A DNA stretch of 61,380 bases from a virus (lineage: Duplodnaviria > Caudoviricetes), in IMG/VR virus record IMGVR_UViG_3300000271_000007, positions 1 through 61,380 of that record; one strand, written 5' to 3'. Positions 687 through 58,680 of this stretch are shown here, in pieces. Made by a program: the position numbers and the translations under genes. The notes beneath the pieces were generated by a model. The model saw nothing but the letters and a program-made list of their open reading frames with translations, ran no database searches and was not told where the DNA came from. The stretch's first letter is position 1. Every line of letters begins with the position of its first letter.

Positions 687-1919
687 TCAGGCCAGCGTCA
701 GGTTTGCCACCCGGGTGACGCCATCGGTGCCGCGCACGCTCACGCGCAGGTTGGTGTTGGTGGTGAGGCTGAACACCATCGTCTGGTTCACGGTGAGGCT
801 CGGCGCGGCGGTGTTGGCCTTCCAGATGGCGTTCTGGTTGGAGTCCAGGCGCAGCGCCTCGCGCAGCACGCCGGCGGCGGTGTTGCCGTTGGCAGCCGTC
901 GGCGCGGTGTGGAAGGTCAGCGTCATCCCGCCGCCTTCGTCGGCGCTGTATGTCTCCGCTGCCTCGGCGGCGATGACGGCGCCGAACTTCGGATTGGTGG
1001 TGGTGAACTGGCCGTCCGTCGAGCCGAACTTGATGGCCGGCATGTACTTGTTGGTGGTGTTCGAGTCTGCGGCCACGAGCTCCAAGCCCGCATTGGTCTG
1101 CGTCAGGTCGGGGTTGCCGACGCTGGTGCTCTGCAGGCGCAGCTTGGCGTCGGTCCCGCTGGCTTGAACGTGCAGCCGAGCCTGCGGCGCAACCCCCATG
1201 CCCACGTCGCCCGACGCATCCATCTGCAGGCCGGTGACGCCGCCCACCAGGAACGAATGCCCGGTCACGGTCGTGCCGCTGCGCGTGATGACGTAGGCGT
1301 TTGCGGGGGTGTCGTTCGCGTCGTTGGTGGTTCCGAGGGCGAACGACCCGCCGCTGACTGATGCACGCCACTTGCGGTTGTCCCCTGCGGCGTCAGACTC
1401 GTCCAGCATCAGCGCCGGGTTGGTGCTCGTGATGTGCAGGGCGTTCAGCGGCGTCGTCGTGCCGATGCCCAGCCCGGTCGTGGTCAGGCGCAGGCGGTCG
1501 GCGCCGGCCAGCGCCACGCCGATGCTGTTGGTGCCGGGTCGGTAGAAGCCGGTGTCCAGGTCGGCAGCGAATCGGACCCCAGGGGTGGAAACGTTTCCAT
1601 CTCCGAACTGCCCTTCGCCCGCGCCGTCGCGCACCGCGGCGAAGTCGTTGATGAGGGTCTGCGCTGCCGTGGCCAGGGTCTGCACGATGCCCTGCGTGGG
1701 CACGATCTTGTAGGGCTCGCCCGAGTCGCTGGCGCTGGCGTAGGGCTCGGCCAGGGTCAGCTGCGTGTTGGAATCCACGCTCAGGATCTCGTAGGTGAAG
1801 CGGTCGGGGCCGATGAAGCCGTGCCCGGCCTTGACGTTCGCCACCCAGGAGGTGCCCGAGCCGGTGACGGTGGGGCTGCCGCTGGTGACGGAAACGGTGC
1901 CGGCCTTGTACCACGCCAT
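687..1919 (-). CDS. Tail fibre protein
   Basis: N-terminus MAWYKAGTVSVTSGSPTVTGSGTSW typical of tail fibres; GIGTTTP/GMGVAP beta repeats; AGGAG RBS. Confidence 0.85.
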   Translation of the reverse strand: MAWYKAGTVSVTSGSPTVTGSGTSWVANVKAGHGFIGPDRFTYEILSVDSNTQLTLAEPYASASDSGEPYKIVPTQGIVQTLATAAQTLINDFAAVRDGAGEGQFGDGNVSTPGVRFAADLDTGFYRPGTNSIGVALAGADRLRLTTTGLGIGTTTPLNALHITSTNPALMLDESDAAGDNRKWRASVSGGSFALGTTNDANDTPANAYVITRSGTTVTGHSFLVGGVTGLQMDASGDVGMGVAPQARLHVQASGTDAKLRLQSTSVGNPDLTQTNAGLELVAADSNTTNKYMPAIKFGSTDGQFTTTNPKFGAVIAAEAAETYSADEGGGMTLTFHTAPTAANGNTAAGVLREALRLDSNQNAIWKANTAAPSLTVNQTMVFSLTTNTNLRVSVRGTDGVTRVANLTLA

Positions 1920-1929
1920 GTGCTTCTCC

Positions 1930-2322
1930 TTACAGCGCGGCGAGCGCGCTCTTGGCCGATTCCTCGGCTGCTTCGATTTCGGCCTCGGTGGTGCAGGCCA
2001 TGACGGATTCCTTGCCAGCGAAGCGTGCGCCCTCGATGGCCGGCCCCTTGTCGTCGTCGAACACTGCGGCGGCGCTGATGATCGAAGCGGCAGCGGCCAG
2101 CGCAGTCATGCCGCGCGCGGCGGCCTCGTGCGCGATGTAGGGCGGCACGGTGGCGTCGGCGTCCAGCGCGTGCGCAGCGGTGTAGGCCACGGCCTGCGCC
2201 AGCTTTCTCTCGTACACCCGCGATTGCAGCGGCAGGTCGGTGAGGTACTTTACGCGCGCCGCGCCGGCTGCCGCGTCGATGCGCTTGCAGGCCCTGATCC
2301 GCAGGAGTGCGAGGCTGGTCAT
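1930..2322 (-). CDS. Putative tail fibre assembly/chaperone protein
   Basis: Start MTSLALLRIRACKRIDAAAG overlaps upstream stop; lies between two fibre genes. Confidence 0.6.
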   Translation of the reverse strand: MTSLALLRIRACKRIDAAAGAARVKYLTDLPLQSRVYERKLAQAVAYTAAHALDADATVPPYIAHEAAARGMTALAAAASIISAAAVFDDDKGPAIEGARFAGKESVMACTTEAEIEAAEESAKSALAAL

Positions 2323-5225
2323 GCTTCGTAGATGGCGTGAAGGATGCGGCTGACGGTCGCCACCAGTTCGTTCGTCCCGTCGTTGCGGATCGACACCAGC
2401 ACCCGGGTCTGTCGCTCGCCGGCGGGGCTGATGGGGATCTGCGCCTGCGTCCAGGTGCGTGTCGTGCCCAGGGACTGCCACACCCCCAGCGTGCCGCCGG
2501 TGAGGGCGTCGCCGCTCTCCACCTCGGCGAACCCGCTGAAGCTGCCCGACACCGTGCCCTTGAACCACTCGGCCACGTCCACCCAGGTGCCACCGTTGAT
2601 GCGCTGCTGCACCTTGCCGTTGCTGTTCAGCCGGAACTCGGCCACTGCGTCGGTGCCGGTGGCAACGCGCGTGGCCAGGGTGTAGCCGCTCGAACTGTTC
2701 GGGCCGGTGGACGGCGTGGCGCGCTTGATCTTGGCGACGTTCACCCGCAGCGGCCCCTGCGTCGGGCTGCCGCTGCGCGTGGCCTGGATCTCGATCCAGC
2801 CGCTGTCGATGCCCGTGCCCATGCCGCTGATGGTCACGGTGGACGTGCTGACGCTGGTGATGATGCTCGCGTCGCTCTTGCTGCTGACCGTGAAGGTCCA
2901 CAGCGCCGTCTCGTCGGTGGTGCTGCGCTGGACCTTGCACACCACGGGGAAGGTCTGCCCCGCGTCGATCAGCCCGGTGCTGTCGGCGTTGAAGGCCACC
3001 GCGTAGGTGCTCAGGGACGCAACGATGGTGCCCAGGCCGTTGAGCACGGGCGCGCCGGTGCCGTTGTAGGTGATGTTGCCGTCGGCAGTGCCCAGCGCGA
3101 ATGTGCCGTCGGCGTTGATGACGGCGCCGGTGCCGGTCATCGTGGTGCCGCTGATGGTCGGGCTGCTGCCCACGCGCAGCTGGCCGGCGAAGGTGCCGGT
3201 GGCTGCCACCAGCGCGCCCGAGAATGTGCCGCCCGAGGCGTAGATCAGCCCGCGCACGATGGCGTTGCTGAACTCCACATTGCCATTGCCCTGGATGCGC
3301 CAGCCGGCCGAGCCGGTGACGAAGCCGGTGCTGCTCATGTCCGCGCCGACCCGCAGCGTGCCGGTGGTCAACTGCGCCACGCTGATGTCGGCGGCCACGA
3401 TCTGGTCGGCGATCAGCGTGGCGATGCGGGCGTACAGCGCCGACAGGTTCACGATGAAGGCCGCGTCCATGTAGACCCCGGCCGGGATCGACACACCGCC
3501 CTCGGTGCTGGTGCTGGTCCGCACGATGAAGGGCTTGCTGTCGGCAGCGCCCGAGCCTGCCGGCGCGGTGATCCAGAACTGGTCGGCGCGCACGCCGAAG
3601 TCGATGCGCGGGCCGGCGGTGGCCGTGGCCGTGGCCGACAGGCCGAAGCCGCCCACCACGGTGCGCCCGCCCGACGACACCTCGGCGCGCAGGGTGTAGA
3701 GCGCTGCCACGGAGCCGTCCAGCGCCGCCCGGGTGCTTTCCTCGGTCAGCAGCCGTGCATAGGTCGGGTTGTTCAGCGTGGTCGGGCTGTTGACGGCCAC
3801 CTCCAGCCCGCTCGTGCGCGTGGCCAACGCGGCGTTGCCGCTGGTGCCGTTGTTCACGGTCAACTCCACCACGTCGAGCGCGGCGGCCGTGGCAGACACC
3901 CCGGTGGTCGCGTTGTTGACCGTGGCCTCCAGCGCCGTCGTCCTGCTGGCCAGCGCCGCGTTGCCCTGCGTGCCGCTGTTGACCAGCGTTTCCACCACGT
4001 CCAGCGCCAAGGCGGTCGCCGACACGCCCGTGGTCGGGTTGTTGACCGTGGACTCCAGCGTGCTGGCGCGCGTGGCCAGTGCGCTGTTGCCGCTGGTCGC
4101 GTTGGTGGTCACGGCCTCCAGTGCCGTCGCGCGGGCCAGCAGGCCGGTGCTGGGCGTGTTGACCGACGATTCCAGCCCGCTGATGCGCGTCACCTGCGCG
4201 CCGTCGGCGTCCACCCGGGCGCTCAGTTCCTCGAACAGCAGGCCCGACGTCACCAGCGACAGGTCGGTGCCGTCGTAGGTGCCGCGCAGCTGGGCGGCCA
4301 GCGTGGTGCGTTGCAGCGCCTCGGCCTCGTCAGCGGTGGCGCGGACCAGTTCCTCCTGCTCCAGCGCAGCGGCCAGCACGGCGTCGCCGGCATCCACCGC
4401 TGCGGTCAGCGTCACGATGCGCTGCGCCAGCTGCTCGTCTTCCGATGCGCGCACCACGTTCGCCAGCGTGATGGCCGCGCCGCGGTCCTCGGCCTCAGCC
4501 AGCAGGTCGGCCGCCCGGGTCTTGCTCTCCTGGTAGGTGCTCAGGATGTTCGCCAGCGCCGCGGCAGCCGCCTCGTCGATGCTGTCGGCGATGCTGTTGA
4601 TCGGCGTGCCGATGTCGATGTACAGCTGGCTCGCGGTGATCTGGTTGGTCAGGATCTCCAGCAGTTGCTCGATGTCCTGGCCCGTGGTGCCGGTGACGCC
4701 GTTGGTGCCGCCTGCCGGGCTCACCGACAGCACGCCGTCGTTCGTCTCGAACTTGGCCCACACGTGCCACTGCGTGTTGAGCTCGCTCGGCAGGGAGATG
4801 ATGGTCAGCGGGTGCGTGGCCGTCGCCACTACCTGCGCGTCGCCGAAGGTCGGCAGCGGCGCGGTGCTGGCCGGGTCGCGCTTGACGGCGTAGATCAGCG
4901 TCTGCTTGTTGCCGCGGCCCTCGGTGTAGGTGACGCCGCTCCACGTCAGGATGACCTGGCTGAAGCCGGGGAAGATGGCGAGGTCGCTCACCGTCGGCGG
5001 GGGCGTCAGGTCGGGCGTGTCGCCTCCACCGCCACCCGTGCCGGGCACGATGATCGTGGTGCTGCTGCCGCCGCTGCCGCCACTGCGCAGGCGCAGCGCC
5101 GCGTCGCGCGGGTCGCCACGCAGGCCCAGCAGGCTCTGCAGTTCCTCGCGGATGCGCTGGAGCGTTCGCCGCAGGTCCGGGTCCAGCCCCTCGGGGATGG
5201 GCGGGATGTCCTTCACCGTGGTCAT
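2319..5225 (-). CDS. Tail tip / host-specificity protein (DUF1983, gpJ-like C-terminal region)
   Basis: Start MTTVKDIPP overlaps upstream stop; coiled-coil repeats, then FGVRADQFWI...YMDAAFI and GWRIQGNGNVEFSNAIVRG motifs. Confidence 0.8.
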   Translation of the reverse strand: MTTVKDIPPIPEGLDPDLRRTLQRIREELQSLLGLRGDPRDAALRLRSGGSGGSSTTIIVPGTGGGGGDTPDLTPPPTVSDLAIFPGFSQVILTWSGVTYTEGRGNKQTLIYAVKRDPASTAPLPTFGDAQVVATATHPLTIISLPSELNTQWHVWAKFETNDGVLSVSPAGGTNGVTGTTGQDIEQLLEILTNQITASQLYIDIGTPINSIADSIDEAAAAALANILSTYQESKTRAADLLAEAEDRGAAITLANVVRASEDEQLAQRIVTLTAAVDAGDAVLAAALEQEELVRATADEAEALQRTTLAAQLRGTYDGTDLSLVTSGLLFEELSARVDADGAQVTRISGLESSVNTPSTGLLARATALEAVTTNATSGNSALATRASTLESTVNNPTTGVSATALALDVVETLVNSGTQGNAALASRTTALEATVNNATTGVSATAAALDVVELTVNNGTSGNAALATRTSGLEVAVNSPTTLNNPTYARLLTEESTRAALDGSVAALYTLRAEVSSGGRTVVGGFGLSATATATAGPRIDFGVRADQFWITAPAGSGAADSKPFIVRTSTSTEGGVSIPAGVYMDAAFIVNLSALYARIATLIADQIVAADISVAQLTTGTLRVGADMSSTGFVTGSAGWRIQGNGNVEFSNAIVRGLIYASGGTFSGALVAATGTFAGQLRVGSSPTISGTTMTGTGAVINADGTFALGTADGNITYNGTGAPVLNGLGTIVASLSTYAVAFNADSTGLIDAGQTFPVVCKVQRSTTDETALWTFTVSSKSDASIITSVSTSTVTISGMGTGIDSGWIEIQATRSGSPTQGPLRVNVAKIKRATPSTGPNSSSGYTLATRVATGTDAVAEFRLNSNGKVQQRINGGTWVDVAEWFKGTVSGSFSGFAEVESGDALTGGTLGVWQSLGTTRTWTQAQIPISPAGERQTRVLVSIRNDGTNELVATVSRILHAIYEA

Positions 5226-6865
5226 GGCCGGCGCAGGTCGTCCACGTCGGTGCCGCCGCGCACCGCGATCACGCGCGCGGCCGACGACACTTCCACCTGG
5301 AACTGGTCGGCGTACTTCGCCACGCTCGGCCGCACGCTGTCGTCGTCCGTGATGCTGCGGTCCAGGATCAGCAGGCCGTCGGCCCACACTTTCAGCGTCA
5401 CCGGGTAGCCCTTGGCGATCACCTCCCAGGCCTGCATGCAGGTGGGCTCGGGGGTCTGGATCAGCTTGCTCTTGAAGGTCGCCGTCATCGCGCTGCCGGC
5501 ATCCCAGCGGCGCACGTTGCCGCCGTCGAGCACATAGAGCCGGTCGCTGATGGGGTCGCGGTAGAGCGCGTGGTAGCCCGTGCCCAGGAAGTAGATGCCC
5601 TGCGGGTTCTTCGGGTCGATCAGGAAGCCCTTGCGGGTCGCGCCGTCCTCGTAGAAGCAGATGTAGAAGCCCAGCACGCGGCTGGCGATCATCGTGCTCG
5701 GGTTCAGCGCCTGCCACTGCTCGCGCGTGAGCATGTCGCCGGTCAGGAGCCGGAAACCGCCGTCGCCGTACCAGCACAGCCCTTCCTCGGACGGCCACAC
5801 CACGCCCTTGTAGGCCTCGCCCTCGTTGAACTCCACCACGCCGCGCACGCTGGCGCACGGGCGGTTGATCTTGGCCGGCTCGTCGTCCATCGACTCCGGG
5901 GCCGTGCCGTTGATGAGGTAGGCGTCACCGGTCGTCAGCACCAGCAGGCGCTGGCCCCACACGGCTTGCGCAATGGCCTTGCTCGGCAGGCCGATCTCGT
6001 AGGCGATGGGCCAGGCGTAGTGCTTGTACGGCTCGCAGAAGCGCACCGTCTTGCCAGACAGGATCGAGAACATACCGCCCCACAGCTTCGTCAGGCAGGT
6101 GCCGTCAGCCGGCGGCGGGCGCCAGCCGGTGGTCTGCAGCGGGTCGCTGCCCACGCTGCGCGCGTCGTCGATGGGGTTGGCAGGCGTCGAGCCGATGACC
6201 CACTCGCGCAGGAAGAAGTAGTCGCCGGCCGTGCCGGTGCCGGGCACGAAGCGGTACAGGCGGATCTTCGTGATGCCGAAGGCGCCCGACGGCGCGGTGT
6301 CGAAGCCGCTCAGGTCGAACGTGGTGCCAGGCTTGTTCAGCAGCGTGTTGCTCACCGGCGAAGGCGCCGACTCCCAGCCCAGGTCGTTCACGAAGGTGTA
6401 GACCCACAGGTAGGCTTGGTCCGTGCCGGTGGCGCTGGCGGTGTTCACGGCCGCGGTCAGCGCGGTGGTGGGCGCCGGCACCGACAGTTCGCGCGTGGCC
6501 TGCGGGTACGGCGCGCCGCCGCTCAGGGCGATCACGTTGTCCGTCCACTTCGGGGTGCCGCTGCCGCTGAAGTAGGTGCGCTCGGTCGTGTCGTCGGTGT
6601 CGAAGCCCCGCACGGCGTGGACCACGGTGCTCCAACTGAGCCAGTAGTCCGCTTCGCTGGCCACGTCCTGGCCCATTCGGTGGATCGTCAGGCGCTGCGG
6701 GCTGGTGGGCACGGTGGCCACGGCAGAGCCGGGCTGGTTCCACGGTCGCAGGTCGCCGTAGCCCGGCCGCTGGTTGAGCGACTGCACGCCGACGCCTGCC
6801 GGCAGCAGCAGTTCATCGAAGGCGAGGTTGGCCCCCTGGAAGGCGGTGATGTCGAGCGTGCTCAC
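5222..6865 (-). CDS. Podoviral tail tubular / nozzle protein
   Basis: 547 aa beta-rich; YTFVNDLGWESAPSP and FCEPYKHYAWP motifs; tail module position. Confidence 0.7.
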   Translation of the reverse strand: MSTLDITAFQGANLAFDELLLPAGVGVQSLNQRPGYGDLRPWNQPGSAVATVPTSPQRLTIHRMGQDVASEADYWLSWSTVVHAVRGFDTDDTTERTYFSGSGTPKWTDNVIALSGGAPYPQATRELSVPAPTTALTAAVNTASATGTDQAYLWVYTFVNDLGWESAPSPVSNTLLNKPGTTFDLSGFDTAPSGAFGITKIRLYRFVPGTGTAGDYFFLREWVIGSTPANPIDDARSVGSDPLQTTGWRPPPADGTCLTKLWGGMFSILSGKTVRFCEPYKHYAWPIAYEIGLPSKAIAQAVWGQRLLVLTTGDAYLINGTAPESMDDEPAKINRPCASVRGVVEFNEGEAYKGVVWPSEEGLCWYGDGGFRLLTGDMLTREQWQALNPSTMIASRVLGFYICFYEDGATRKGFLIDPKNPQGIYFLGTGYHALYRDPISDRLYVLDGGNVRRWDAGSAMTATFKSKLIQTPEPTCMQAWEVIAKGYPVTLKVWADGLLILDRSITDDDSVRPSVAKYADQFQVEVSSAARVIAVRGGTDVDDLRRP

Positions 6866-19045: not shown

Positions 19046-19543
19046 CTACAGGGTGCAGCCAGCATGGAGCCTTCGTTTTGCGTCCAAGTAGGCGGCTCTG
19101 GCGTCTTCCTCTCGGTCGAATAGGCCAAGCCGAATCGGCACGCCGTCCACCTTGATCCTGGCATCGAACTTCTTGTCGCCCTTGTGCCAGCTGTAGCCCT
19201 TGCAGGATCGACGGTTCTCGGAGTTCGTCTTGTGCGAGGCCAGTCGCAGGTTTGAGGGCCTGTTGTCCCTCTTGTCGCCATTGATGTGGTCGATAAGAGA
19301 GCCTGCGTGGTCGCCATTGGCGAGCAACCACACAATCCGGTGGACCAAGTAGGGCCGTCCGTCCAACTTGACTTGGATGTAGCCGTTGCTTGTTGGCGCA
19401 CCCGCGATTCCAAGGGCGTTCTTGCAACGCCACGTGGGGCTCTTCCAAGTCAAGACGCCTGTTTCCGCGTCAAGACGTAGTAGCTCGTTTGCGCGATCAA
19501 ACGAGATCGGCGGAGCCTTTCGGGATAGCATGTTGGCAGCCAT
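19046..19543 (-). CDS. Free-standing HNH homing endonuclease with AP2-like C-terminus
   Basis: HRIVW...IDHINGDKRDNRPSNLR; LGLFDREEDARAAY; lower GC. Confidence 0.9.
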   Translation of the reverse strand: MAANMLSRKAPPISFDRANELLRLDAETGVLTWKSPTWRCKNALGIAGAPTSNGYIQVKLDGRPYLVHRIVWLLANGDHAGSLIDHINGDKRDNRPSNLRLASHKTNSENRRSCKGYSWHKGDKKFDARIKVDGVPIRLGLFDREEDARAAYLDAKRRLHAGCTL

Positions 19544-33793: not shown

Positions 33794-34246
33794 TCAGGCG
33801 GCCTCGGCGAAGGCGAACACGCTGGACTGCGGCAGCGGTGCCGGGGTCAGGCCATGCTTGCGGTGGATCTTCGCCAGCAGCAGCGCATCGGATCGCTGCT
33901 TCTCGGGCGTCTTCCACGCACCACGTTCCGCTGCGCGGCGGCAGCACTCGGCCGGCGTCACCGCTTCCATGTGCTCAGGGTTCAGGCACAGCCGGTTGCA
34001 GCACGTCATCACCACGCGGTGGCCAGCGGGGATCGGACCCTTGCGCATCTCGAACACCACGCGACGGGCCAGCACCGTGCGCTTGGTCTGCCGCGTCGCA
34101 GGGTCGTAAGTGCTCTTGTCGTGCATCTGCGGGTAGCCGCCTTTGCGGCTCACAGTGCCCTGCCAGTTCAGGCAGTCACCGACCTTCTTGCACACGGCGC
34201 GGATGCTGGAGAAGGTCCGCGGCTTGCCGATGTTGATGCGCTTCAC
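33794..34246 (-). CDS. HNH-like (beta-beta-alpha-Me) protein, possibly degenerate
   Basis: CLNWQG...GYP...ARRVVFE...CCNRLCLNPEHM. Confidence 0.65.
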   Translation of the reverse strand: MKRINIGKPRTFSSIRAVCKKVGDCLNWQGTVSRKGGYPQMHDKSTYDPATRQTKRTVLARRVVFEMRKGPIPAGHRVVMTCCNRLCLNPEHMEAVTPAECCRRAAERGAWKTPEKQRSDALLLAKIHRKHGLTPAPLPQSSVFAFAEAA

Positions 34247-50227: not shown

Positions 50228-50347
50228 TTACCGCTTCAGCCCCCACAGCAGCACGCCGAAGTGTCCCACAGCCACCAGCAGCCCCGGCCAGCCGAACGTG
50301 AGCACCACGGCCACGTAGCCGGCGACGATCAGTCCGGCGCCGATCAC
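50228..50347 (-). CDS. Small membrane protein (39 aa)
   Basis: GTGA overlap with giant gene stop; hydrophobic. Confidence 0.45.
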   Translation of the reverse strand: MIGAGLIVAGYVAVVLTFGWPGLLVAVGHFGVLLWGLKR

Positions 50348-53300
50348 TGCAACGCCTCGGCGGTCTGCGCGCGCAGCGGGCGCGGGGTGTTGGCCACGGT
50401 GCGCTCGGCCTTGCTCATGCGCATCTGGCGCAGCCGCTGGCGGATGGTCTGCGGCAGGATGATGATGCGTGCCTCGGGGTTGGAGTCGTTCCACCGTGCC
50501 AGCGCCTGCTGTGCGTTCCGCAGCGCGTCGTCGTCGCCGTCGAACCGGGCCTGCGCCATCGCGTCGGTCAGTTCTTCCTTCACCGCCTGGTAGAGCGAGC
50601 GCTGCTGGATCTGCCGGCCGATCTCGCGCTGCGCGCGGGCGACGTTCGAGGGCTGCAGGCCGATGCCCTTGAGCACTGCGTCCACCATGTCGGCCTCGGT
50701 GACGTTCCGGCCGCGGCGGTCGCGGTACAGGCCCGTCTCGTAGATGTCCAGGCCCTGCATCAAGTTGCGGATGGCCACCGGCAGGAACTGGCCCTGCGTG
50801 GCATCGCGCACCGCCGAGCCGGCCACGCCGAAGACTTCCAGCACCTGGTTCTGCTTGTTGGACTCGGAGGTCTTCAGCAGCCCGGTGCCCGGCAGCAGGT
50901 TCGCCATGCCCAGGCGCTGCGACACGTCAAACGGCACGCCGGGCATACCACTGAACCCGTGCTGCACCAGGTCGGAGAAGGTTTCCCCCAGCAGCGCGTC
51001 CAGCCACTTGTCGCGCTGCGCGTCGGTCGTCCAGTTGTAGCCCAGGCCCTGCGCCACGGTGTCGATCAGGTCGTCGGCGTCGTCGGCGAACGGCAGTCCC
51101 TTCATGCCCGACAGCATCACCAGCGTCAGCAGCGCCAGCGCGGCAGCCTTGCGGCCCTGCGCGCGCTCGGGTGAACCCGGCTCGCCGGCCGTGGCCAGCC
51201 GCTTCAGGAACTCCAGGTACTGGATCGTGAAGGTCTTGAAGGTGAACAAAGTGGCGCCCACGGCGCCACGACTCCACGAAGGCCTATTTCCTTTGTTAAA
51301 AACAGATTGCGTCTCGTCCACCGCGTTCTCGGCGAAGGCGAACGGGTCGGCCATGCCCTGCTGGCGCGCAGTCTCGTAGGCAGCGATGAAGGCCGTGCGG
51401 CGGTTGAACTGCTCGGCCAGTTGGAACATCGAGCCCCAGGCGGCCAGCAGCGAACGGGCGTAGAGGTTCGAGCCCAGGCTGCGGCTGGCCTCGGCCTGCA
51501 GTTGGAACACCTCCTGCGGCTTGATGACGCCATCCTTCTCGGCACGTGCCACGGCCTTGGCCAGCGCCGGGTCGGCGATCTTGTCGGCCAGCGCCGTCTT
51601 CATGGCACTCGACAGCCGCGCGCCGGCCTTGATGGCGCCGCCGTACTGGCTCAGGTAGGGCAGCGTCTGCACCAGGGTCTGCGTCAGGTTGACCATCGCG
51701 GAGGCGATGCTGCCGCCGATGTACTGCACGAACAGCAGCCCGCGCAGGGCCTGTGCTTCTTCCTTCGGGTTGTTGACGTACTCCACCAGCGCACGGGCTT
51801 CGTCCTTGACGTCACCCTGCTGCACGTTCTCCACGGCGTCGGCCATGCGGGCGGCGTGCAGCGCGCGCGACGCGGCGCGGGCGTTGCTGGTCACGAAGGC
51901 GGCCAGCACCCGGCCACCGTCCTCGTCGAAGCCCTCGATGCCCTTGCGGCGGATGTGGCGCTTCAGCGCGGACTGCTCGGCCACGGCGTTCTGCAGCCAC
52001 TTTTGCATGGCCTCGTTCTTCTCGACGCCCAGCATCTCGGCGAACAGCAGCGCCGTCTCGGGCGACACGCCTTGCAAGGCCTCGAAGTCCTTCTGCGGCA
52101 TGATGCTCTGCGTCACCTGGAGCCCGTCGCCGCGGAAGTTGCGCGCGGCCTTGTTGGCGGCGGCCTGGCTCTCGTACATGCCGAAGAACACCCGGCGGCC
52201 GTCGGCGTTCACCGCGTCCACGGCGTAGGGTCCGAAGCGCATCAGCGGCGCGTAGCCGGCGTCTTGCAGGTCGGCGATGCGCTGCGCCTTGTCGGCGATG
52301 CTGGTCTGGAGCTTGCGCAGTTCCTGGCGGCGGGCCATCAGGTCGGGCGTGTGCTGGTTTGGCTGGCCGTCCAGCGCCGTTTCCAGTTCGGCCAGCCGGT
52401 CCTTGATGGCGTTGCGCATCAGGGTGTAGGCCTGCCAGGGGTTCTCCGACGCAGCGGCGCGGCGCATGCCGGCCAGCAGCGCGTCCAGTTCCCCCGGCGT
52501 GGTCGCCAGCATCTCGGGTGGCAGCACGCTGGCCTGCCGGTACAGGTCGGCCGCCAGCATGTTCTCCAGGCTCTGGTCGATGGCCTGCCGGCTCTGGCGG
52601 TACATCTTCACCGCCCGGTCGCTCAGGCCACGCTCGCGCAGTTCGGCGTCGGTCCACACGATGCCGCCCAACTCGTCGCTGTCGGGCTCGACCTTCACGG
52701 CCTTGCCTTCCTCGTCGCGGGTGTAGCGCAGCGTGCCGTCGAACAGCGCGGCACTCGCGGCCTGGATGTCGGCCTTGCGCTGCTTGTAGGCGGCCGGGCT
52801 CGCCAGCGTCGGCGCCAGCCGGGCCAGGTCACCCAGGCTCTCGATCTGCGGCAGCATGTCGGGCGCCTTGTCCGCTGCCAGCGTGGCGATGCGGCTCACG
52901 TCCTTCATGAAGTCCTGCACGGCGTAGTAGACCCGGCCGAAGTCCTTGTTGATCTTGGCCTTGTGCAGCTGCGTGCCCACGGTGCGGTGCCACACGCGGT
53001 TGAACCCGCGCTGCGAGGTCGTGCGGTCGGTCATCCACTGCTGCACGCCCTCGGGGATGGTGTCGCGCAGGGCATTGGCGGTGCGGGCAAGCATGGGGCC
53101 GTCGGCGGCGGGTTCAGCGTCGGGCGCCGGGGCCGCTGCCGTTCCCTGCCCGGTGTTCACATGCACCCCACCCTGCAGCCCGCGCCCGGTCAGCGCAGCC
53201 ACGAAGTCCAGCACCATGTCGTCGGTCCAAGTCATCTCCAGGCCCAGGGCCTTGGCGAAGCCAGCCACCCAGCTGCGGATCGTCTCCATCAGCTTGCCCC

Positions 53301-56300
53301 AGCCTTTCAGGTCGCGCACGGTCCCGGCCTCGGCCATCACCGCCAGCGCTTCCTCGATGGCCTCATCTTGCCCGATTCCGTGGGCCTTCATCTGCGCAGC
53401 GGTGGCGGCACGCAGGTTCTGGTTCGTGCGCCACATCTCGCGCAGCACGGCCTTGGCCTCGGGGATGGTGCGCGCCAGCCCGCGGTGGAAAGCCTCGTGG
53501 AAGGCGATGCGGACGAACTCGTCGGCGCCGCGGATGTTGTCAGCCACCATCCAGATGCTGTCGCCCTGGCGGAAGTAGGCGCCGCGCACCTGCCCTGCCG
53601 GGTCCAGCGCCAGCACCTTGTCGCGCTGCCGGGCGGGCATGTCGGCCACGCTCTGCACCACGTTCAGCCGCACCATGCCGCGCTCGGCCATCTGCGCCGC
53701 CAGCGCGCGGGCGGAGTCGAGGTCCAGGGAGCCGGCGGCGGTGGAGCCGCGCTTGAGCATCGCCACGTTGCCAGTGTCGTCCTGACTGGCCGGGAAGTGC
53801 TTGTCCAGCACCTGCTTGGCGGCGTACTTCGCGGCCGGCGTCAGTTGGCGCTGCCACGCCTCGTTCTTCGGGCTCCACTTGAACGCTGCGGCCTTCAGGT
53901 CTTCGCGCACAGCATCGCTCGGCTTGCCGTCGAAGTACAGGCGCAGTCGGTCGTCGGTGGCGTCCTCCACCATCCGCACGCCGTTGTACTCCTGCTCCAC
54001 CGGCCCGGCCTGCGCCGCGGCCATGCGTTCCTCGGCGCTCTTGAGTCGTTCGCGCAGCCGCGCAATCTCTGCGTTGTTGTTGCTCAGGCGGTAGGCCGGG
54101 AAGCCAGTGCGGCCCGCGAAGTCGGGCTTCTTCAGTTCGGCGATCTGCTCGGCCGTGAAGCCCAGGTCTTCGAGTGCCGCATCGTCGCCCTTGCGCAGCG
54201 CCGCGTTGGCAGCCTTCATCTGCTCTTGCAGTTCCTCGCGCTGGGTGAGGTTCAGCCGCACGCGCTCCAGTTCGGACTCGGGGCTGTTGTCGATGGGGCC
54301 ACGGGCAGCGCGCAGCAGGCGCTTGATTCCACGCTCCAGGTACTCGCTCGCTTCTTCGGCCCGCTTGCGCGCCGTGGCGTTGCGCTTCTCCATGCGGCGC
54401 ACGGGGAAGTTGCTGCCGCCGGCGATCATGGTGGACACGATCTGGCTCTTGGCGCCCAGCGATGCGGCATACCGGGCGTTGTAGCCGGCCGCCACGTCCT
54501 CGAACACCTCGGTGATGCGGGCGATGGCCGCCTCGTCCTTGCCAGCAACGCGCGCGGCTCGGTCCCATGCGTCTCGCAGCGCCTCACGGTAGCCGGCAAC
54601 TTCCTGCTCGCCACGGCGCTCGGGGCTGAAAGACGTGCCTCGATGCGCGCTCTGCGCCAAAGACATGGACAGGCCGGGGATGCCGGGCATGGGGGCAATG
54701 CCCGTTGCCGGCGCAGCCTCTGCTGGCGCTGCTGCTTCCTCTGCTGCGGGCTGGGGGGTAGCGTCTTCGCCGGCCGCCTTGTAGTCGTCGGCCTTGTCCA
54801 CGTTCAGCGGCTCTTGCGTCTCGCCGGCCAGTTCAATCGGGCCAGCGTAGGGCTTCACCTTGGCGAGATCCACGCCAGCGCCGTCGTAGGTCAGCGTGAC
54901 GTGCGGCGTGTAGCTCTCGTAGTCCCACGATGCGCCGGCCTTGCGGTACTCGCGCCAGCGCGCCTGAAGCTCGGGGCTCTCCAGCTTCAGAACGACAGCG
55001 CCTTGATCGCCCAGCGGCTCAACGGAGCGCTTGCCGGACCGCACGGTCAGCGGGGCATCATCGGCAGGGACAAGAGCACCGTCCACCGGCTCGCGGCTGT
55101 AGGCCACGGTGACGTGCATGTCGGCAGCGGGCAGCGTGGTCTTGAAGCCTTGCGTCGCAGCCCAGGCGCGGATGGCTTCGGCGCTGGCCGGCGTCAGGGG
55201 GCGGCTGGCGTACAGGGGGGTAGGCTCTTGCTCGGCCGCAGGGGCTGGCGCTGCCTCGCGCTCGGCCACGGCTGCCGCCGGCGCACTGATACCCAGCCGC
55301 TCGTTCAGCGTCCCCGGCTTGTGGCTCTCGCTCGTGATGCCGCTGACGCCAAAGGCATCGAAGGCGCTGCGCGGGTCGGCCTTGTTCGCCTCGTCCTGCG
55401 CGCGGGGCTTCATGGCCTCGGCTTCTTCCTTCGTGTCGAAGGGGCCTGCCAGCCGGGCCACGCGGTCGCCGCGCACCATCGTGACGTAGAACTTGCGTTC
55501 GCCCTTGGCATCGGGGTCGCCTGCGGTCGCCACCACGGCGTCAGGCGCGGCGGGGCGCTCGACTTGCTCCTGCAGCGTGCGCTTGGCCGTCCCCTTCTCT
55601 GCCTGCAGCCGCTTGCGGCGGGCGGCCGGTTTCTCGGGGTTCGCCATACTGGTATTTGATACAGTAGGCGGGTCGTCATTGGTTGCATCCGATGACGACC
55701 CTAGCTCATCAACTCTTGTCGGAGAATTGACTTGCGTACTGTCCAGTGTACCTATTGCTCTGCCCCCGTCCTGCGGACCAACTCGGACGTCAACAGATAC
55801 CCGTCCGGGAATTCCTTCTGCAACACGGCTTGCCAATACGCTTGGCGCGGCAGAAATTCCGTCACCTTCACGTGCACCAACTGCGGCGTCACGGGCAAGC
55901 GGAAGCCCGCCCGCACCACCGGGCATCGCAACTTGTTCTGCGGCTACGCTTGCCGCGACACGTACAAACGTGTCGGAAGCATCAACAAGGACGGGTACCG
56001 ATCCTTCAAGCTCAACGGCCGCCAAGTTCTTGAGCACCGCCTCATAGTCGGCTCTGCCATCGGCTTTGATGCGATTGCCGGCAAGGACGTTCATCACCTC
56101 GACGGGAACAAGCTCAACAATGCGCTTGAAAATCTCGCGGTTCTTGACAAGTCTGCCCACGCCCGAGAGCACCAGACTCTTAGTTTCTGCATCGAGACTG
56201 CCAAGCAACTTGTTGCCAGCGGGTTGAGCGCGCGTGATGCGGCCAAGCAACTCGGCGTCAGCAGGGAGCTTGTTGCGAGTGCTTTTGCTCGATATGGCAT

Positions 56301-58680
56301 CAGCATTCAAAGCCTCAGGCCCTTGCTCTGCAAGCGCAGGGGTTAGTTGCTCTGCTGCTCCTGCAACTCCTGCCGGCGCTGGCGCTTGCTCTGCCGGGGC
56401 TTCGGGCTCGGTTCGCGGTGCTGGTGCATTCTTCCCCTTCGCTGCCACGATGCGGTCGTTGATCTGCGTCGCCAGCACCGTGTCGCCGCGCTGCACGGCG
56501 TCGCTCCAGGCCTTCTTGAGCGTGGGCACGTCGGCGTCGGCAGGCGGGGCGGCGGGCGCTTCCGGCTCGGCCGGGGTGGAAACGTTTCCACCTGCCGGCG
56601 CGGCGGCGGTCGTTTCCACCGGCTCGGCGGCCGGCCCCGTCACTGCATCGGCAGGTGCGGGATCGTCTCCGGGTCGAACTCCATCAGCATCGCCGCCTGC
56701 CGCAGCGCGGTCCACAGCGGCTGGGGCATCGCCAGCATCTGCTGCGGGGTCGCTGCGCTGTTCAGCCATGCCGCGATCTCCAGGTACTGCGGCTCCGTCA
56801 AGAGCCCCAGGCTGTGCATCTGCGTCAGCTTGTCCATCGGTGATGAATCCCTGCGTCGGTCGCACCACGTAGCCGCCGTCCACCGGCACAACTTCGTGCG
56901 TTTCTGCGCCTGCGATGTTGCGAGCACGGGTAGCGCGCGTCTTACTCAAGAAGGCCCGACCGTTGGTTTCCAAGATCAGCCCCTGCTCAGGCTGATATTG
57001 CTTGGCGGCTCGCTCCAGCCGGGCGCTTGGGTCTTCCTGTTCCGCCGGCAGAAGCCTTGCCAGAACATCGGCATCAGTGATCCGGCCCGCTTCATAGTCT
57101 CGGACGTAAGCGCGAGCGGCCATCGTATTGGTGCGCCGCAGGCCGTCGATGAACTGAGCCACGGCATTGGGGGCTGCAGCATCAACCTGCACGGGATCAA
57201 CCATGCGCGTGCGCGGCGCACGACTGACGGGCTCGTCTTTGATAAGCTGAATCCGCGATTGACGATCGCGCTCGACTTGATATGCCGCTTCGCCTTGCTC
57301 CAGGTAGCCGGCGAGCACGGGTGAAGCCACCCATGCCTGCGGCACCACGGTGTAGCCGCTTCCATCAGGGAGCGGCAGAACCGACATGGGATTGCCTGTG
57401 CGCTCCTGCGCCATGCCTGCCAGTTGTTGCGCCTGCTCAGGCGGCATGGGGCGCGGAGAGCGCGCAATCCACTGTTCAATGTTCTGCAGTGCAGCACGTT
57501 CAGAAAGGACTGCCGCGGCTTCTTCGGCCGTGGCGGCACTCCCGTCTTGGAACACATAAAGCGGAGCCTGTCCGGAGAACCCGCCTTCAGGCTCGTAACG
57601 CTGGTTCCATTCCAGCGCAGGCGGCAGCGGCTCTCCCGCGTCGGCCTTCTTCGCCGCCGCTTCCACTGCCGCGTTCACGGCGCGGCTCATCGGCCCCACC
57701 TCGGGCAGCTTGTCCGCGCGCAGTTGGTCGCCGGGGCGCATGGCCGGGCGCGGGATGCCCAGCGCGCCACCCATTGCAGCGCCGGCCAAGGCTTCCATCG
57801 TGCCGCTGGCCACCACGCCAGCCATCGGGTCCACGTCGAAGCCTTCGTTGGCGAGTGCGGTGTTGGTGGCGAACTTCTCCTGCCCGCCTTGTAGCGCCTC
57901 GGGCACGCCTTCGGCCGCAGCACCGATGCCCACGCGGCGCGCGATGCCCGGGGCGGCCTGCGTCGTGCCGCGCACCAGGCGGTCGGCCGCGGCCTCGATG
58001 CCCGACCGGCCAGCCCATGCACCCAGCCCGGCGCCCAGCGCGATCTGCCCGGCGTTGGGGCCGCCGTAGGCCTGCGCCTGTGCGGCCAGCGCCTGCGCTT
58101 CCTCGGGGGTCTTGCCCGCGGCCAGCTGCGCCTGCAGCACCTCGTCGTAGATGCTCGACTTCACCGCGCCAGCGCCCTGCCCTGCACCGATGCCGAGTGC
58201 CGCACCCATGCGGCCAGCCACGGCAGCCGGGCCGGCGCCGGGGATCAGCGCGGTGGCCACGGTCGGGATCGACGTGCCGACGGCCTGCGCCAGCGTCTGC
58301 ACCGGGGCCACGCCGAAAGCGCGGAAGCCGGCCACGACTTGATCCAGCAGCCCCTTGCCCTCGGCGTCGCGCAGGATCTGCGCCATCGTGCGCTCGTCGG
58401 CCTGCGCCTCGGCGCTCTTGAGGCTGGAGATGTAGTCCTCCACGCTGCGCAGCCCACCGGACACGGCGTTGTCCGCGCCGGCGAGGTCGGTCAGCATGCG
58501 CACGCCCTGCACGGCACCACGGCCGAACGACAGGCCGGTGTCGGCCACGGCGCGCGCCATGCCGCGAGGCTCGGCCGGGGCAGCGACTTGCGCCGCTTGC
58601 GCGGACAAGGCGGCCATCGCCGCGTCGAAGTCAATCGGCTCTTGCGGTTGCGCGATGTAAGTCGGCTTGCGGGTGGCCAT
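50344..58680 (-). CDS. Giant polyvalent internal virion protein (PLxRFG type) with 2H phosphoesterase, DUF3560-like and HExxH domains
   Basis: YAPLMRFG ~52240; FHEAFH ~53490; HVTVAYS and PHVTLTY ~54780-55215; Gly/Ala hydrophobic N-terminus. Confidence 0.85.
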   Translation of the reverse strand: MATRKPTYIAQPQEPIDFDAAMAALSAQAAQVAAPAEPRGMARAVADTGLSFGRGAVQGVRMLTDLAGADNAVSGGLRSVEDYISSLKSAEAQADERTMAQILRDAEGKGLLDQVVAGFRAFGVAPVQTLAQAVGTSIPTVATALIPGAGPAAVAGRMGAALGIGAGQGAGAVKSSIYDEVLQAQLAAGKTPEEAQALAAQAQAYGGPNAGQIALGAGLGAWAGRSGIEAAADRLVRGTTQAAPGIARRVGIGAAAEGVPEALQGGQEKFATNTALANEGFDVDPMAGVVASGTMEALAGAAMGGALGIPRPAMRPGDQLRADKLPEVGPMSRAVNAAVEAAAKKADAGEPLPPALEWNQRYEPEGGFSGQAPLYVFQDGSAATAEEAAAVLSERAALQNIEQWIARSPRPMPPEQAQQLAGMAQERTGNPMSVLPLPDGSGYTVVPQAWVASPVLAGYLEQGEAAYQVERDRQSRIQLIKDEPVSRAPRTRMVDPVQVDAAAPNAVAQFIDGLRRTNTMAARAYVRDYEAGRITDADVLARLLPAEQEDPSARLERAAKQYQPEQGLILETNGRAFLSKTRATRARNIAGAETHEVVPVDGGYVVRPTQGFITDGQADADAQPGALDGAAVPGDRGMAEQRSDPAADAGDAPAAVDRAAAGGDADGVRPGDDPAPADAVTGPAAEPVETTAAAPAGGNVSTPAEPEAPAAPPADADVPTLKKAWSDAVQRGDTVLATQINDRIVAAKGKNAPAPRTEPEAPAEQAPAPAGVAGAAEQLTPALAEQGPEALNADAISSKSTRNKLPADAELLGRITRAQPAGNKLLGSLDAETKSLVLSGVGRLVKNREIFKRIVELVPVEVMNVLAGNRIKADGRADYEAVLKNLAAVELEGSVPVLVDASDTFVRVAASVAAEQVAMPGGAGGLPLARDAAVGAREGDGISAAPSVLASRVAEGIPGRVSVDVRVGPQDGGRAIGTLDSTQVNSPTRVDELGSSSDATNDDPPTVSNTSMANPEKPAARRKRLQAEKGTAKRTLQEQVERPAAPDAVVATAGDPDAKGERKFYVTMVRGDRVARLAGPFDTKEEAEAMKPRAQDEANKADPRSAFDAFGVSGITSESHKPGTLNERLGISAPAAAVAEREAAPAPAAEQEPTPLYASRPLTPASAEAIRAWAATQGFKTTLPAADMHVTVAYSREPVDGALVPADDAPLTVRSGKRSVEPLGDQGAVVLKLESPELQARWREYRKAGASWDYESYTPHVTLTYDGAGVDLAKVKPYAGPIELAGETQEPLNVDKADDYKAAGEDATPQPAAEEAAAPAEAAPATGIAPMPGIPGLSMSLAQSAHRGTSFSPERRGEQEVAGYREALRDAWDRAARVAGKDEAAIARITEVFEDVAAGYNARYAASLGAKSQIVSTMIAGGSNFPVRRMEKRNATARKRAEEASEYLERGIKRLLRAARGPIDNSPESELERVRLNLTQREELQEQMKAANAALRKGDDAALEDLGFTAEQIAELKKPDFAGRTGFPAYRLSNNNAEIARLRERLKSAEERMAAAQAGPVEQEYNGVRMVEDATDDRLRLYFDGKPSDAVREDLKAAAFKWSPKNEAWQRQLTPAAKYAAKQVLDKHFPASQDDTGNVAMLKRGSTAAGSLDLDSARALAAQMAERGMVRLNVVQSVADMPARQRDKVLALDPAGQVRGAYFRQGDSIWMVADNIRGADEFVRIAFHEAFHRGLARTIPEAKAVLREMWRTNQNLRAATAAQMKAHGIGQDEAIEEALAVMAEAGTVRDLKGWGKLMETIRSWVAGFAKALGLEMTWTDDMVLDFVAALTGRGLQGGVHVNTGQGTAAAPAPDAEPAADGPMLARTANALRDTIPEGVQQWMTDRTTSQRGFNRVWHRTVGTQLHKAKINKDFGRVYYAVQDFMKDVSRIATLAADKAPDMLPQIESLGDLARLAPTLASPAAYKQRKADIQAASAALFDGTLRYTRDEEGKAVKVEPDSDELGGIVWTDAELRERGLSDRAVKMYRQSRQAIDQSLENMLAADLYRQASVLPPEMLATTPGELDALLAGMRRAAASENPWQAYTLMRNAIKDRLAELETALDGQPNQHTPDLMARRQELRKLQTSIADKAQRIADLQDAGYAPLMRFGPYAVDAVNADGRRVFFGMYESQAAANKAARNFRGDGLQVTQSIMPQKDFEALQGVSPETALLFAEMLGVEKNEAMQKWLQNAVAEQSALKRHIRRKGIEGFDEDGGRVLAAFVTSNARAASRALHAARMADAVENVQQGDVKDEARALVEYVNNPKEEAQALRGLLFVQYIGGSIASAMVNLTQTLVQTLPYLSQYGGAIKAGARLSSAMKTALADKIADPALAKAVARAEKDGVIKPQEVFQLQAEASRSLGSNLYARSLLAAWGSMFQLAEQFNRRTAFIAAYETARQQGMADPFAFAENAVDETQSVFNKGNRPSWSRGAVGATLFTFKTFTIQYLEFLKRLATAGEPGSPERAQGRKAAALALLTLVMLSGMKGLPFADDADDLIDTVAQGLGYNWTTDAQRDKWLDALLGETFSDLVQHGFSGMPGVPFDVSQRLGMANLLPGTGLLKTSESNKQNQVLEVFGVAGSAVRDATQGQFLPVAIRNLMQGLDIYETGLYRDRRGRNVTEADMVDAVLKGIGLQPSNVARAQREIGRQIQQRSLYQAVKEELTDAMAQARFDGDDDALRNAQQALARWNDSNPEARIIILPQTIRQRLRQMRMSKAERTVANTPRPLRAQTAEALQ
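55732..56346 (+). CDS. HNH endonuclease with zinc fingers and C-terminal HTH, nested antisense in the giant gene
   Basis: Two CxxC...FCxxxC fingers; EHRLIV...DVHHLDGNKLNNALENL...H; GGAG RBS at 55721; lower GC. Confidence 0.9.
   Translation: MRTVQCTYCSAPVLRTNSDVNRYPSGNSFCNTACQYAWRGRNSVTFTCTNCGVTGKRKPARTTGHRNLFCGYACRDTYKRVGSINKDGYRSFKLNGRQVLEHRLIVGSAIGFDAIAGKDVHHLDGNKLNNALENLAVLDKSAHAREHQTLSFCIETAKQLVASGLSARDAAKQLGVSRELVASAFARYGISIQSLRPLLCKRRG
56640..56837 (-). CDS. Probable overprinted 65-aa gene in an alternate frame of the giant gene
   Basis: MDKLTQMHSLGLLTEPQYLEIAAWL...; GC-rich third positions in this frame while the host frame is low-complexity. Confidence 0.55.
   Translation of the reverse strand: MDKLTQMHSLGLLTEPQYLEIAAWLNSAATPQQMLAMPQPLWTALRQAAMLMEFDPETIPHLPMQ

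Follow-up and report, generated by a model that had tools for sequence, protein, structure and literature searches.

Anatomy of the nested locus

The stretch of DNA analyzed here (the window) comprises an entire viral contig, 61,380 bp long, from a member of the Caudoviricetes (IMG/VR record IMGVR_UViG_3300000271_000007), with structural genes (tail fibres, internal virion protein, major head, and portal) on its minus strand. Its subject is a gene for an HNH endonuclease that lies antisense inside one giant gene of that strand. The giant gene, which we call the host gene (protein P0001), spans 50344-58680 on the minus strand, starts with ATG, and encodes 2778 amino acids, and both the list of open reading frames (ORFs) and the translation find it stop-free throughout. 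The HNH ORF occupies 55732-56346 on the plus strand, encodes 204 amino acids from a TTG start, and is closed by a TAG stop at 56347-56349. The two frames have common codon boundaries—i.e. position 55732 and the lowest base of every minus-strand codon are both 1 modulo 3—and stops in the host frame therefore correspond to the HNH codons TTA, CTA, and TCA. None of these three codons occurs among the 19 Leu and 16 Ser codons of the HNH gene.

The HNH gene fills most of an inserted island of 712 bp (55640-56351), which is recognized by breaks in blastn homology, breaks in contigs from other sequencing runs, and a lower GC content, and which is missing from a close relative (contig L005). The HNH ORF and its stop take up 618 bp of the island, ~90 bp lie outside the ORF, and the right edge of the island is found 2 nt past the HNH stop. 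GC content is 0.57-0.60 across ~55550-56450, compared with ~0.68-0.74 in the adjoining DNA. At third codon positions (GC3), the island has a value of 0.72 when read as HNH and 0.52 when read as host, while the remainder of the host gene has a GC3 of 0.85; the coding signature inside the island belongs to the plus-strand gene. On the minus strand, the antisense of the HNH unit (55648-56349) is translated as a passenger segment of 234 amino acids, residues 778-1011 of the host protein, which its translation, its GC3, and its predicted local distance difference test (pLDDT) values set apart.

The 106-nt leader of the HNH gene folds at -42.7 kcal/mol (z -5.1), and 0 of 200 shuffled versions fold as well. 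Its hairpin has a 13-bp stem and a 6-nt loop (55670-55701, plus strand), and a Shine-Dalgarno-like GGAG (55721-55724, plus strand) follows 7 nt ahead of the TTG start. A candidate extended -10, TGATACAGT, is present in the sequence at 55657-55665 of the plus strand and is not verified as a promoter. One terminator-like site (55403-55420) is within chance expectation.

Many of these features had been noticed in a preliminary description of the window, which reported an uninterrupted minus-strand frame of 2778 amino acids, a lower-GC island of ~700 bp (then placed at 55645-56350), a 204-residue HNH gene on the plus strand in codon register with the host and free of TTA, CTA, and TCA, a leader hairpin, and a ribosome-binding site, and saw no intron or intein motif. 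The ORF list and translation, the blastn and contig breaks, Pfam, the leader folding, and the Rfam and Hint/intein searches given below bear all of this out, and the ribosome-binding site is the GGAG. Two claims of that description stand in part. The possible extended -10 is there as a sequence, but a scan for sigma-70 promoters gives no promoter. Likewise, the codons said to be avoided are indeed absent, but in a GC-rich copy their absence is not by itself evidence of selection, as A-ending codons are scarce across the gene.

The protein encoded by the nested ORF matches the Pfam family HNH_3 (PF13392) with 33.4 bits against a cut-off of 24.8 (E 3.5e-8; 36.1 bits in a six-frame search), and weak helix-turn-helix matches are found at its C-terminus. 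Scanning 1.84 billion representatives with phmmer/HMMER returned 7123 relatives at E<=0.001; by phmmer, the best full-length relative is 44% identical over residues 4-196 of 204. Relatives are present in 328 phage records, many of them annotated as HNH homing endonuclease. When the window protein is aligned with 14 homologues (n = 15), it keeps 22 of 22 invariant columns, including H102, R103, H121, H122, N130, N134, H143, H147, and nine Cys/Phe positions, and the two CxxC...FCxxxC zinc fingers are kept as well. The AlphaFold2 model has a mean pLDDT of 88.4, and its top PDB match is I-HmuI (1u3e; E 1.1e-3, probability 1.00, 129 columns); the elongated, multi-domain shape of the protein keeps the template modelling score low (0.28-0.32). 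Judging from these matches, the nested gene (55732-56349 with its stop), with two zinc fingers, an HNH core, and a C-terminal helix-turn-helix-like part, is a real and intact HNH endonuclease gene, and its activity is predicted.

Searches for closer relatives of the HNH protein returned little. A word-based search of a protein collection gave only 4 distant HNH relatives and did not return the window HNH itself, a scan of viral contigs for close relatives found none, and none was found when the protein was searched in genome contigs. The phage also carries two more HNH_3 genes, both free-standing and on the main coding strand, at 19046-19543 (minus), directly after the major head gene, and at ~33794-34240 (minus).

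Over its last ~930-1480 amino acids, the host protein is 97% identical to P0003-P0005 and 37-78% identical to remoter proteins with polyvalent-protein Pfam domains, e.g. PF18760. Long blocks are also common to P0001 and P0005-P0013, and the precomputed Pfam domains of the latter include PF18760. The sole Pfam match of P0001 itself is Acb1, and its polyvalent membership rests on homology because no polyvalent Pfam match of its own is found at E<=0.01. By this homology, P0001 is a mosaic polyvalent-type protein, and a 'PLMRFGPY' stretch in it resembles what we take to be the PLxRFG motif. Polyvalent proteins are chains of modules joined by low-complexity linkers. One module of P0001, outside the insert, is an Acb1-type 2H phosphoesterase, a type that acts against the cyclic-oligonucleotide-based antiphage signaling system (CBASS); it covers residues 1155-1298 (54787-55218, minus; PF23474, E 1e-38), and PF23474 is also found in P0008, P0010, and P0011.

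Both flanks of the island are conserved in P0003, P0004, and P0005, with ...APAEQAPAPAGVAGA on one side and PE-x-P-x-ARRKRLQAEKG... on the other, and the slot between these flanks holds a different cassette, of ~120-460 amino acids, in each of the three proteins. Homology to L005, the contig that encodes P0005, ends at 56352 and resumes at 55639 in blastn, and this sets the junctions that the preliminary description had expected alignment with insert-free homologs to define. The island occupies a variable cassette slot between conserved linkers. Directly upstream of the insert, in the sense of the host, alignment identifies a module of the form PTLKKxW...NDRIVAxK (residues 719-746; 56443-56526, minus), and after the insert comes a conserved linker (..PEKPAARRKRLQAEKG..; 55590-55639, minus) that alignment and blastn find to be common to insert-free relatives.

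More generally, the near-identical polyvalent genes compared here (window 55590-56900 and P0003/P0004/P0005) differ by whole cassettes between short conserved linkers, for example ..APAPAGVAGA.., ..ARRKRLQAEKG.., and ..AAAVAEREAAPAPA.. Such linkers look like recombination joints for module swapping. A search for P0005 in genome contigs gave none, and blastn of the region against cultured phages gave short module matches only, with the insert in no cultured phage.

Polymorphism, recurrence and signs of selection

An independent assembly of the probable source run contains a contig of 8353 nt that covers 55141-57400 with 0 differences. In run X3, which comes from another study, a 793-nt contig over 55594-56386 has 3 differences and bridges the two junctions by 46 and 35 nt. 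The X3 differences listed inside the island, 56073 G>C (GCG>GCC) and 56076 T>C (ATT>ATC), are both synonymous for the HNH, and in the host frame the same changes replace Arg with Gly and Asn with Asp. In runs X4 and X5, flank contigs break at 56352 and 55623 and continue into other sequence—i.e. they represent the insert-free allele—and both runs additionally contain short, unconnected contigs that match parts of the HNH gene exactly. Presence and absence of the island are thus polymorphic among near-identical phages within samples, and the searches recovered the exact insert from this phage line and run X3 alone.

Some data from these runs were not counted as evidence. These are the stretches without cover in X3-X5 and the depths, available as one value per contig (~2-7 for HNH pieces and ~8-110 for flank contigs). 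The same applies to a contig of 54,261 nt from run X1, of the probable source sample, which has 9 differences over 92 nt (55660-55751), matches again over ~56087-56135, and may reflect a related HNH in another genome, whose leader and hairpin resemble those here.

A profile scan of viral contigs confirmed 306 loci, of which 80 were kept and all 80 analyzed. Antisense, in-register, stop-free nesting is found in 6 of the 80 HNH loci (L008, L009, L012, L013, L022, and L028), and the three loci most similar to the window HNH are all among these 6. Their host frames encode at least 1091 (L008), at least 1493 (L009), at least 2858 (L012), at least 1973 (L013), 1381 (L022), and 746 (L028) amino acids; upon extension, the host ORF of L012 is complete at 3162 amino acids, with an HNH gene of 240 amino acids inside. 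Because the GC content of the 6 loci is only 0.41-0.54, frames of 746-3162 codons are not open by chance. As such, it is this recurrence in relatives, and not the window alone, that decides how the open frame is to be read.

The hosts of the nested genes are mostly of one kind. Specifically, those of L008, L012, L013, and L022 carry ART-PolyVal and/or LPD22 polyvalent domains (Pfam), while the L009 host has no Pfam match. The L028 host is an enzyme of 746 amino acids with a PolyA_pol head and an HD domain (minus ORF 3026-5263), and its HNH gene (3902-4528, plus) lies between the two domains. Three further proteins (P0169-P0171; 694-743 amino acids) with PolyA-polymerase head and HD domains contain a by-product peptide related to that of L028.

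The minus ORF of L009 (1-4479) contains two different in-register antisense HNH genes, at 493-990 and 1411-2031 on the plus strand. By-product peptides of such genes share a conserved antisense signature around I-V-E-x-I-P-V-D-V-M-N, and this motif appears twice in the L009 host protein. The sole BLAST similarity between P0001 (residues 792-921) and the L009 host protein is a pair of antisense-HNH by-product peptides. The second L009 insert and the L012 insert sit at homologous sites of homologous host modules, which are 35% identical over 420 amino acids spanning the insert; the HNH proteins of these orthologous inserts are only 50% identical, and the host frame is open in both. The module that houses them carries an HExxH motif and is putatively a metallopeptidase, and tolerance of such inserts is therefore not confined to linkers.

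Not every overlap among the 80 loci was classified as nesting. The open overlapping frames of L041 (364 codons; no Pfam match in the overlapping frame) and L072 (235 codons) were placed in no class, and L015 and L011, which hold broken HNH remnants, were counted as not nested in register. A pattern scan of viral contigs for the hairpin returned a single match (L007), which was dropped as a coincidence since it has no blastn similarity and unrelated ORFs.

A database search with the by-product peptides found the passenger of the window in another mosaic lineage, represented by P0167 and P0168, where it runs ungapped over 230 residues. An alignment in which the insert was scattered along the long proteins (A3) was set aside, and A4 was used instead. 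Passenger identity between the window and P0167/P0168 is 173/231 (75-76%), compared with 108/232 (47%) for the upstream flank, and the downstream parts are unrelated. A homologue of the PTLKKxW...NDRIVAxK module also precedes the insert in both proteins, with 18 of 33 residues identical, and both the host-frame translation of the leader hairpin and the host-frame T-V-S over TGATACAGT are kept there. Among 56 passenger differences, 28 can be explained by one HNH-synonymous change (null share 0.296, binomial P = 0.001), a figure obtained by parsimony from protein only. P0168 was searched in viral contigs, where none was found.

Codon use in the nested genes differs from that of their relatives. 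TTA, CTA, and TCA number 0 in the 1062 core codons of 7 nested genes vs 2.08 per 100 codons in 31 GC3-matched non-nested relatives, a contrast that is partly circular, as 'nested' is defined by an open antisense frame. Signals free of this circularity are host ORF length and domain content, the depletion of A-ending codons and of aromatic residues, and the pattern of substitutions. For example, the share of A-ending codons outside Leu and Ser is 0.139 in nested and 0.215 in non-nested genes, and Phe, Tyr, Trp, and Cys together make up 0.042 of the antisense translation in nested vs 0.13 in non-nested genes (Mann-Whitney P = 1e-4); the by-product peptide is poor in these residues because A-ending codons are depleted. 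In pairwise comparisons, based on alignments that were built on the HNH frame and are near saturation, identity is higher in the HNH frame than in the host frame for 21 of 21 pairs of nested genes, and differences are commonest at HNH codon position 3 in 20 of 21. Taken with the second lineage, these patterns indicate a cassette able to pass from one polyvalent gene to another, under selection both in its HNH frame and for an opposite frame that stays open and harmless.

For the window alone, we also asked how often such a frame would be open by chance. The probability of finding no TTA, CTA, or TCA is 0.07 given the codon use of the HNH gene and 0.48 given that of the phage, and the probability that the 84-nt leader is open in the host frame is 0.24 (shuffles). 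Restoration of the frame adds a further factor of 1/3, for a joint chance of ~1-4%, a value that is suggestive and not decisive for the window in isolation. A-ending codons number 14 of 205 (6.8%) across the whole HNH gene. An internal control is provided by the free-standing HNH_3 gene at 19046-19543, which has a GC3 of 0.73 and 5 TTA, CTA, or TCA in 166 codons; it points toward constraint, in the same direction as the ~1-4% figure. High GC3 also leaves 1450 codons (51307-55659) of the in-register plus-strand frame opposite the polyvalent gene without a stop, and open antisense frames alone mean little here. The caveat that accompanied the preliminary description, namely that in-register antisense frames are often open in GC-rich DNA, thus applies to the window in isolation.

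A probable homing-type cassette and its rivals

We favor, with a probability of roughly 0.72, the explanation that the island is a self-contained HNH homing-type cassette that sits antisense and in register in a variable slot of a giant polyvalent gene, and that the host gene is read through it. The cassette would comprise the conserved leader with its hairpin, the ribosome-binding site, and the ORF of 204 amino acids. Because TTA, CTA, and TCA all have synonyms, the endonuclease protein can stay unchanged while the host frame stays open. The HNH would be expressed from its own leader signals, against the direction of the host gene, and during co-infection it would nick or cut insert-free alleles near the slot; repair would then copy the cassette into the cut genome (homing), often with flanking sequence. 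Host ribosomes would read the antisense of the cassette as 234 extra unstructured residues and go on to the downstream ~1770 amino acids, and the passenger-bearing polyvalent protein would be made and still function. We propose that the passenger is tolerated because polyvalent proteins are strings of modules with flexible linkers. The core of this explanation, a selfish HNH unit that leaves its host gene unbroken, is translated with it as a passenger, and needs neither intron nor intein, was already offered in the preliminary description, and it finds support in the recurrence among viral loci, in P0167/P0168, in the lack of any splicing signal, and in the contig that bridges the junctions.

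The search for splicing signals bears on a quite improbable alternative, in which the mature host protein lacks the passenger owing to RNA splicing, protein splicing, translational bypassing, or the production of two polypeptides (e.g. by a restart at ATG 55647). Rfam gave no match at E<=1 on either strand of 54800-57200, no Hint or intein family was found at E<=1 within ~300 amino acids of the insert in 7 of 7 hosts, and an intron core or intein splicing blocks have no room in the island because 618 of its 712 bp are HNH ORF and stop. Homing endonuclease genes do usually ride in introns or inteins, and 5 of the 80 loci have a related HNH in terminase genes or in weak intein-like ORFs. Moreover, the ATG at 55645-55647 lies exactly at the island edge, where relatives have Pro or Thr, and a very stable hairpin is located 22 nt upstream of it on the host mRNA. 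Yet no Shine-Dalgarno-like sequence is found upstream of this ATG, the proposed restart at MANPEK (55647) is not needed for the explanation, and a spliced-out insert would leave nothing that selects for an open, aromatic-poor host frame, even though such selection is seen. It is also unlikely that the HNH cassette is a chance survivor, which landed by illegitimate or cassette recombination, kept its host frame open through GC richness, and is recent and neutral or mildly harmful. Such an origin would fit the low share of A-ending codons (6.8% over the whole HNH gene, beyond Leu and Ser), the probability of 0.07-0.48 for the lack of TTA, CTA, and TCA, the 1450-codon frame (51307-55659) open from GC bias alone, the zero count of the same codons in matched cores of 7 of the 31 GC3-matched non-nested relatives, and the restriction of the exact insert to this phage line and run X3. 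It does not account for the same layout in 6 of 80 loci at 41-54% GC over 746-3162 codons, for two HNH genes inside one L009 ORF, for orthologous inserts whose HNH proteins are 50% identical and whose host frames are both open, for a passenger that is open and ungapped over 230 residues in P0167/P0168, or for a depletion of A-ending codons and aromatic residues that exceeds what stop avoidance needs.

The nested gene might instead have been domesticated, so that the HNH serves the phage (in packaging, degradation of host DNA, or exclusion of competitors) or its antisense transcript regulates the polyvalent gene; we consider this improbable. HNH proteins serve packaging in many phages (PMC3592412, PMC5304195), the HNH frame is under purifying selection, and the leader is conserved. 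By contrast, the presence/absence polymorphism among near-identical phages within samples, the different cassettes in the same slot, an insert that is more conserved than its flanks between lineages, and the kinship with ShiLan-type insertion elements, which are the nearest cultured relatives and are sporadically distributed (PMC11855218), read as marks of a mobile element, and this phage already has two other, free-standing HNH_3 genes. Finally, an assembler could have joined the island into the gene, given that the source is a metagenome-derived contig and that the locus is polymorphic in samples. The preliminary description had named such a chimera among the results that would overturn its account, and it does not hold: in the independent assembly of the probable source run, an 8353-nt contig covers 55141-57400 without a difference, the two junctions are spanned by the 793-nt contig of a separate study, and the same passenger is embedded in other polyvalent proteins (P0167, P0168). 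As such, this possibility is close to refuted.

Several observations count against the homing-type cassette as we describe it, or weaken its support. An insert-free allele with flank joined directly to flank was not found in the relatives and runs compared; the island replaces another cassette and is not a plain insertion, and it may have entered by homing or by ordinary cassette recombination. Expression signals are also incomplete, as a sigma-70 scan of 55300-56700 gave 0 promoter-like sites and only 3 of the 7 nested HNH genes have a Shine-Dalgarno-like motif ahead of their start codon. The passenger (residues 778-1011) is predicted to be unstructured, with a pLDDT of 24-46 when host residues 700-1100 are modelled, compared with values of up to 69-85 and 64-79 in the flanking modules, of which residues 719-746, at 69-85, are modelled as a helical hairpin, but the alignment behind this model is shallow (3 sequences) and makes it a mere indication of disorder. 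Several statistics rest on small or saturated samples; the partial circularity of the codon count, the use of HNH-frame alignments near saturation, and the protein-only parsimony with P0167/P0168 belong here, and in the window taken by itself the open frame could be chance.

Known systems and significance

The closest published counterpart is the ShiLan domain, for which mycobacteriophage methylase genes conceal an HNH in the third frame of their own strand and no splicing is involved (Arsenault, Gosselin & Gogarten 2025, PMC11855218). Both systems comprise an HNH with flanking zinc fingers nested in a stop-free host ORF with no detectable intron or intein, and in ShiLan, too, the host frame is predicted to yield an unstructured or loop-like product and the element is sporadic among close relatives. 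The window HNH is 34.8% identical to ShiLan and its relatives over residues 44-147 (E 1e-10 to 3e-10). The two differ in that the ShiLan HNH lies on the strand of gp65 (which we confirmed here), in the third frame, whereas the window HNH is on the opposite strand and in register. The ShiLan host is a methylase of ~600-900 amino acids, whereas the hosts found here are giant polyvalent proteins and one PolyA_pol/HD enzyme. For ShiLan, no ribosome-binding site was found, and leaderless initiation from the host mRNA has been proposed (PMC11855218); an antisense gene needs its own transcript, and the window has a leader, a hairpin, and a GGAG. The terms antisense, opposite strand, and reverse complement have 0 occurrences in the available text of that article.

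Same-strand, out-of-frame HNH genes in N6/N4 DNA methylase genes are also present in 5 of our 80 loci (L011, L016, L018, L051, and L074). Among cultured phages, the cyanophage Cr-LKS3 of Cylindrospermopsis (L092, locus 2501-2836) has a nesting of the ShiLan type, and this type is therefore not confined to actinobacteriophages. A tblastn search of cultured phages with the L012 HNH found no antisense case in the best 40 of 48 records, with annotation viewed for two, and the nearest matches among those listed are ShiLan-type and free-standing genes. In Streptococcus phage Javan616 (L093, locus 1784-4169), a related free-standing HNH lies between two lysin-annotated pieces, an arrangement that appears to be either a classical gene split or an unannotated intron.

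Antisense coding of endonucleases has been described in spliced contexts. LAGLIDADG and VSR-like endonucleases encoded antisense within inteins have been reported in a preprint (10.1101/2025.01.02.630785), where, as in the window, the host ORF stays open across an endonuclease gene on its opposite strand. There, however, the intein splices the by-product out, whereas the search for Hint or intein blocks was negative in all 7 hosts here; because such blocks were not found and have no room in the island, the by-product peptide should stay in the host protein. Some of our loci resemble the intein type. In five of the 80 (L057, L058, L060, L068, and L069), a related HNH is located within a terminase gene or an ORF that weakly resembles inteins. 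Of these, L057, L058, and L060 look like the type described in the preprint, with the HNH antisense and in another register inside an ORF that weakly matches Intein_splicing. The Pfam run covered L057, L068, and L069, the intein and Hint matches are below Pfam cut-offs, and L058 and L060 were grouped with L057 by near-identical statistics; these five loci may be inteins with non-canonical endonuclease coding. Homing endonuclease genes antisense to their host gene are also known from nuclear group I introns (PMC9548176), but there the host is an rRNA gene, the intron is spliced, and no dual coding is involved.

Other systems share single features with the window. I-HmuI, the best structural match of the HNH model, has the same order of an HNH_3 motif followed by a C-terminal helix-turn-helix-like part. 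It sits in a self-splicing group I intron on the strand of its host gene, and free-standing HNH genes lie between genes or split a gene (e.g. in Javan616), whereas in the window there is neither an intron nor a split. As to the host, the polyvalent proteins (ART-PolyVal and LPD families) are likewise modular, like beads on a string, with swapped cassettes, and the hosts of 4 of the 6 nested loci and the relatives of P0001 carry their domains.

We found no report of polyvalent genes harboring antisense endonuclease genes, and the antisense, splicing-free form of HNH was not found in print, in a literature search that mostly covered sources outside subscription journals and excluded supplements. 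The preliminary description had presented the passenger as an alternative to introns and inteins; this is supported, but it is not wholly new, given the same-strand version (PMC11855218) and the antisense genes in inteins (10.1101/2025.01.02.630785). What is new here is the combination of antisense coding, no splicing element, codon register, and giant polyvalent targets, whereas the idea of a nested HNH was already known.

Taken more broadly, these loci may represent a recurrent class of splicing-free homing elements, and we give this wider claim even odds. In such a class, HNH genes would have adapted to lie antisense and in register in large genes, mainly giant polyvalent ones, which encode arrays of injected effectors, but also a PolyA-polymerase/HD gene. 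The opposite strand would shape their codons (no TTA, CTA, or TCA and few A-ending codons, with a disordered peptide poor in aromatic residues and Cys), and they would form a third route beside introns and inteins, with cutting that drives the shuffling of cassettes at the slots.

To our knowledge, homing endonuclease genes have been thought to persist in coding regions only by means of self-splicing introns, inteins, or gene splitting. A same-strand exception was described in 2025, and the window and its relatives suggest a second, antisense solution, which makes use of a property of the genetic code, since just three codons, each replaceable by synonyms, make in-register stops. Gene callers retain the giant ORF at the expense of the nested one, and such elements are systematically hidden as a result. 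Their by-product peptides also create spurious similarity between unrelated proteins, as seen for P0001 and the L009 host, and the antisense signature I-V-E-x-I-P-V-D-V-M-N offers a simple handle for mining further cases. For the phages themselves, counter-defence modules such as Acb1 could be shuffled faster if an endonuclease induced recombination where modules join.

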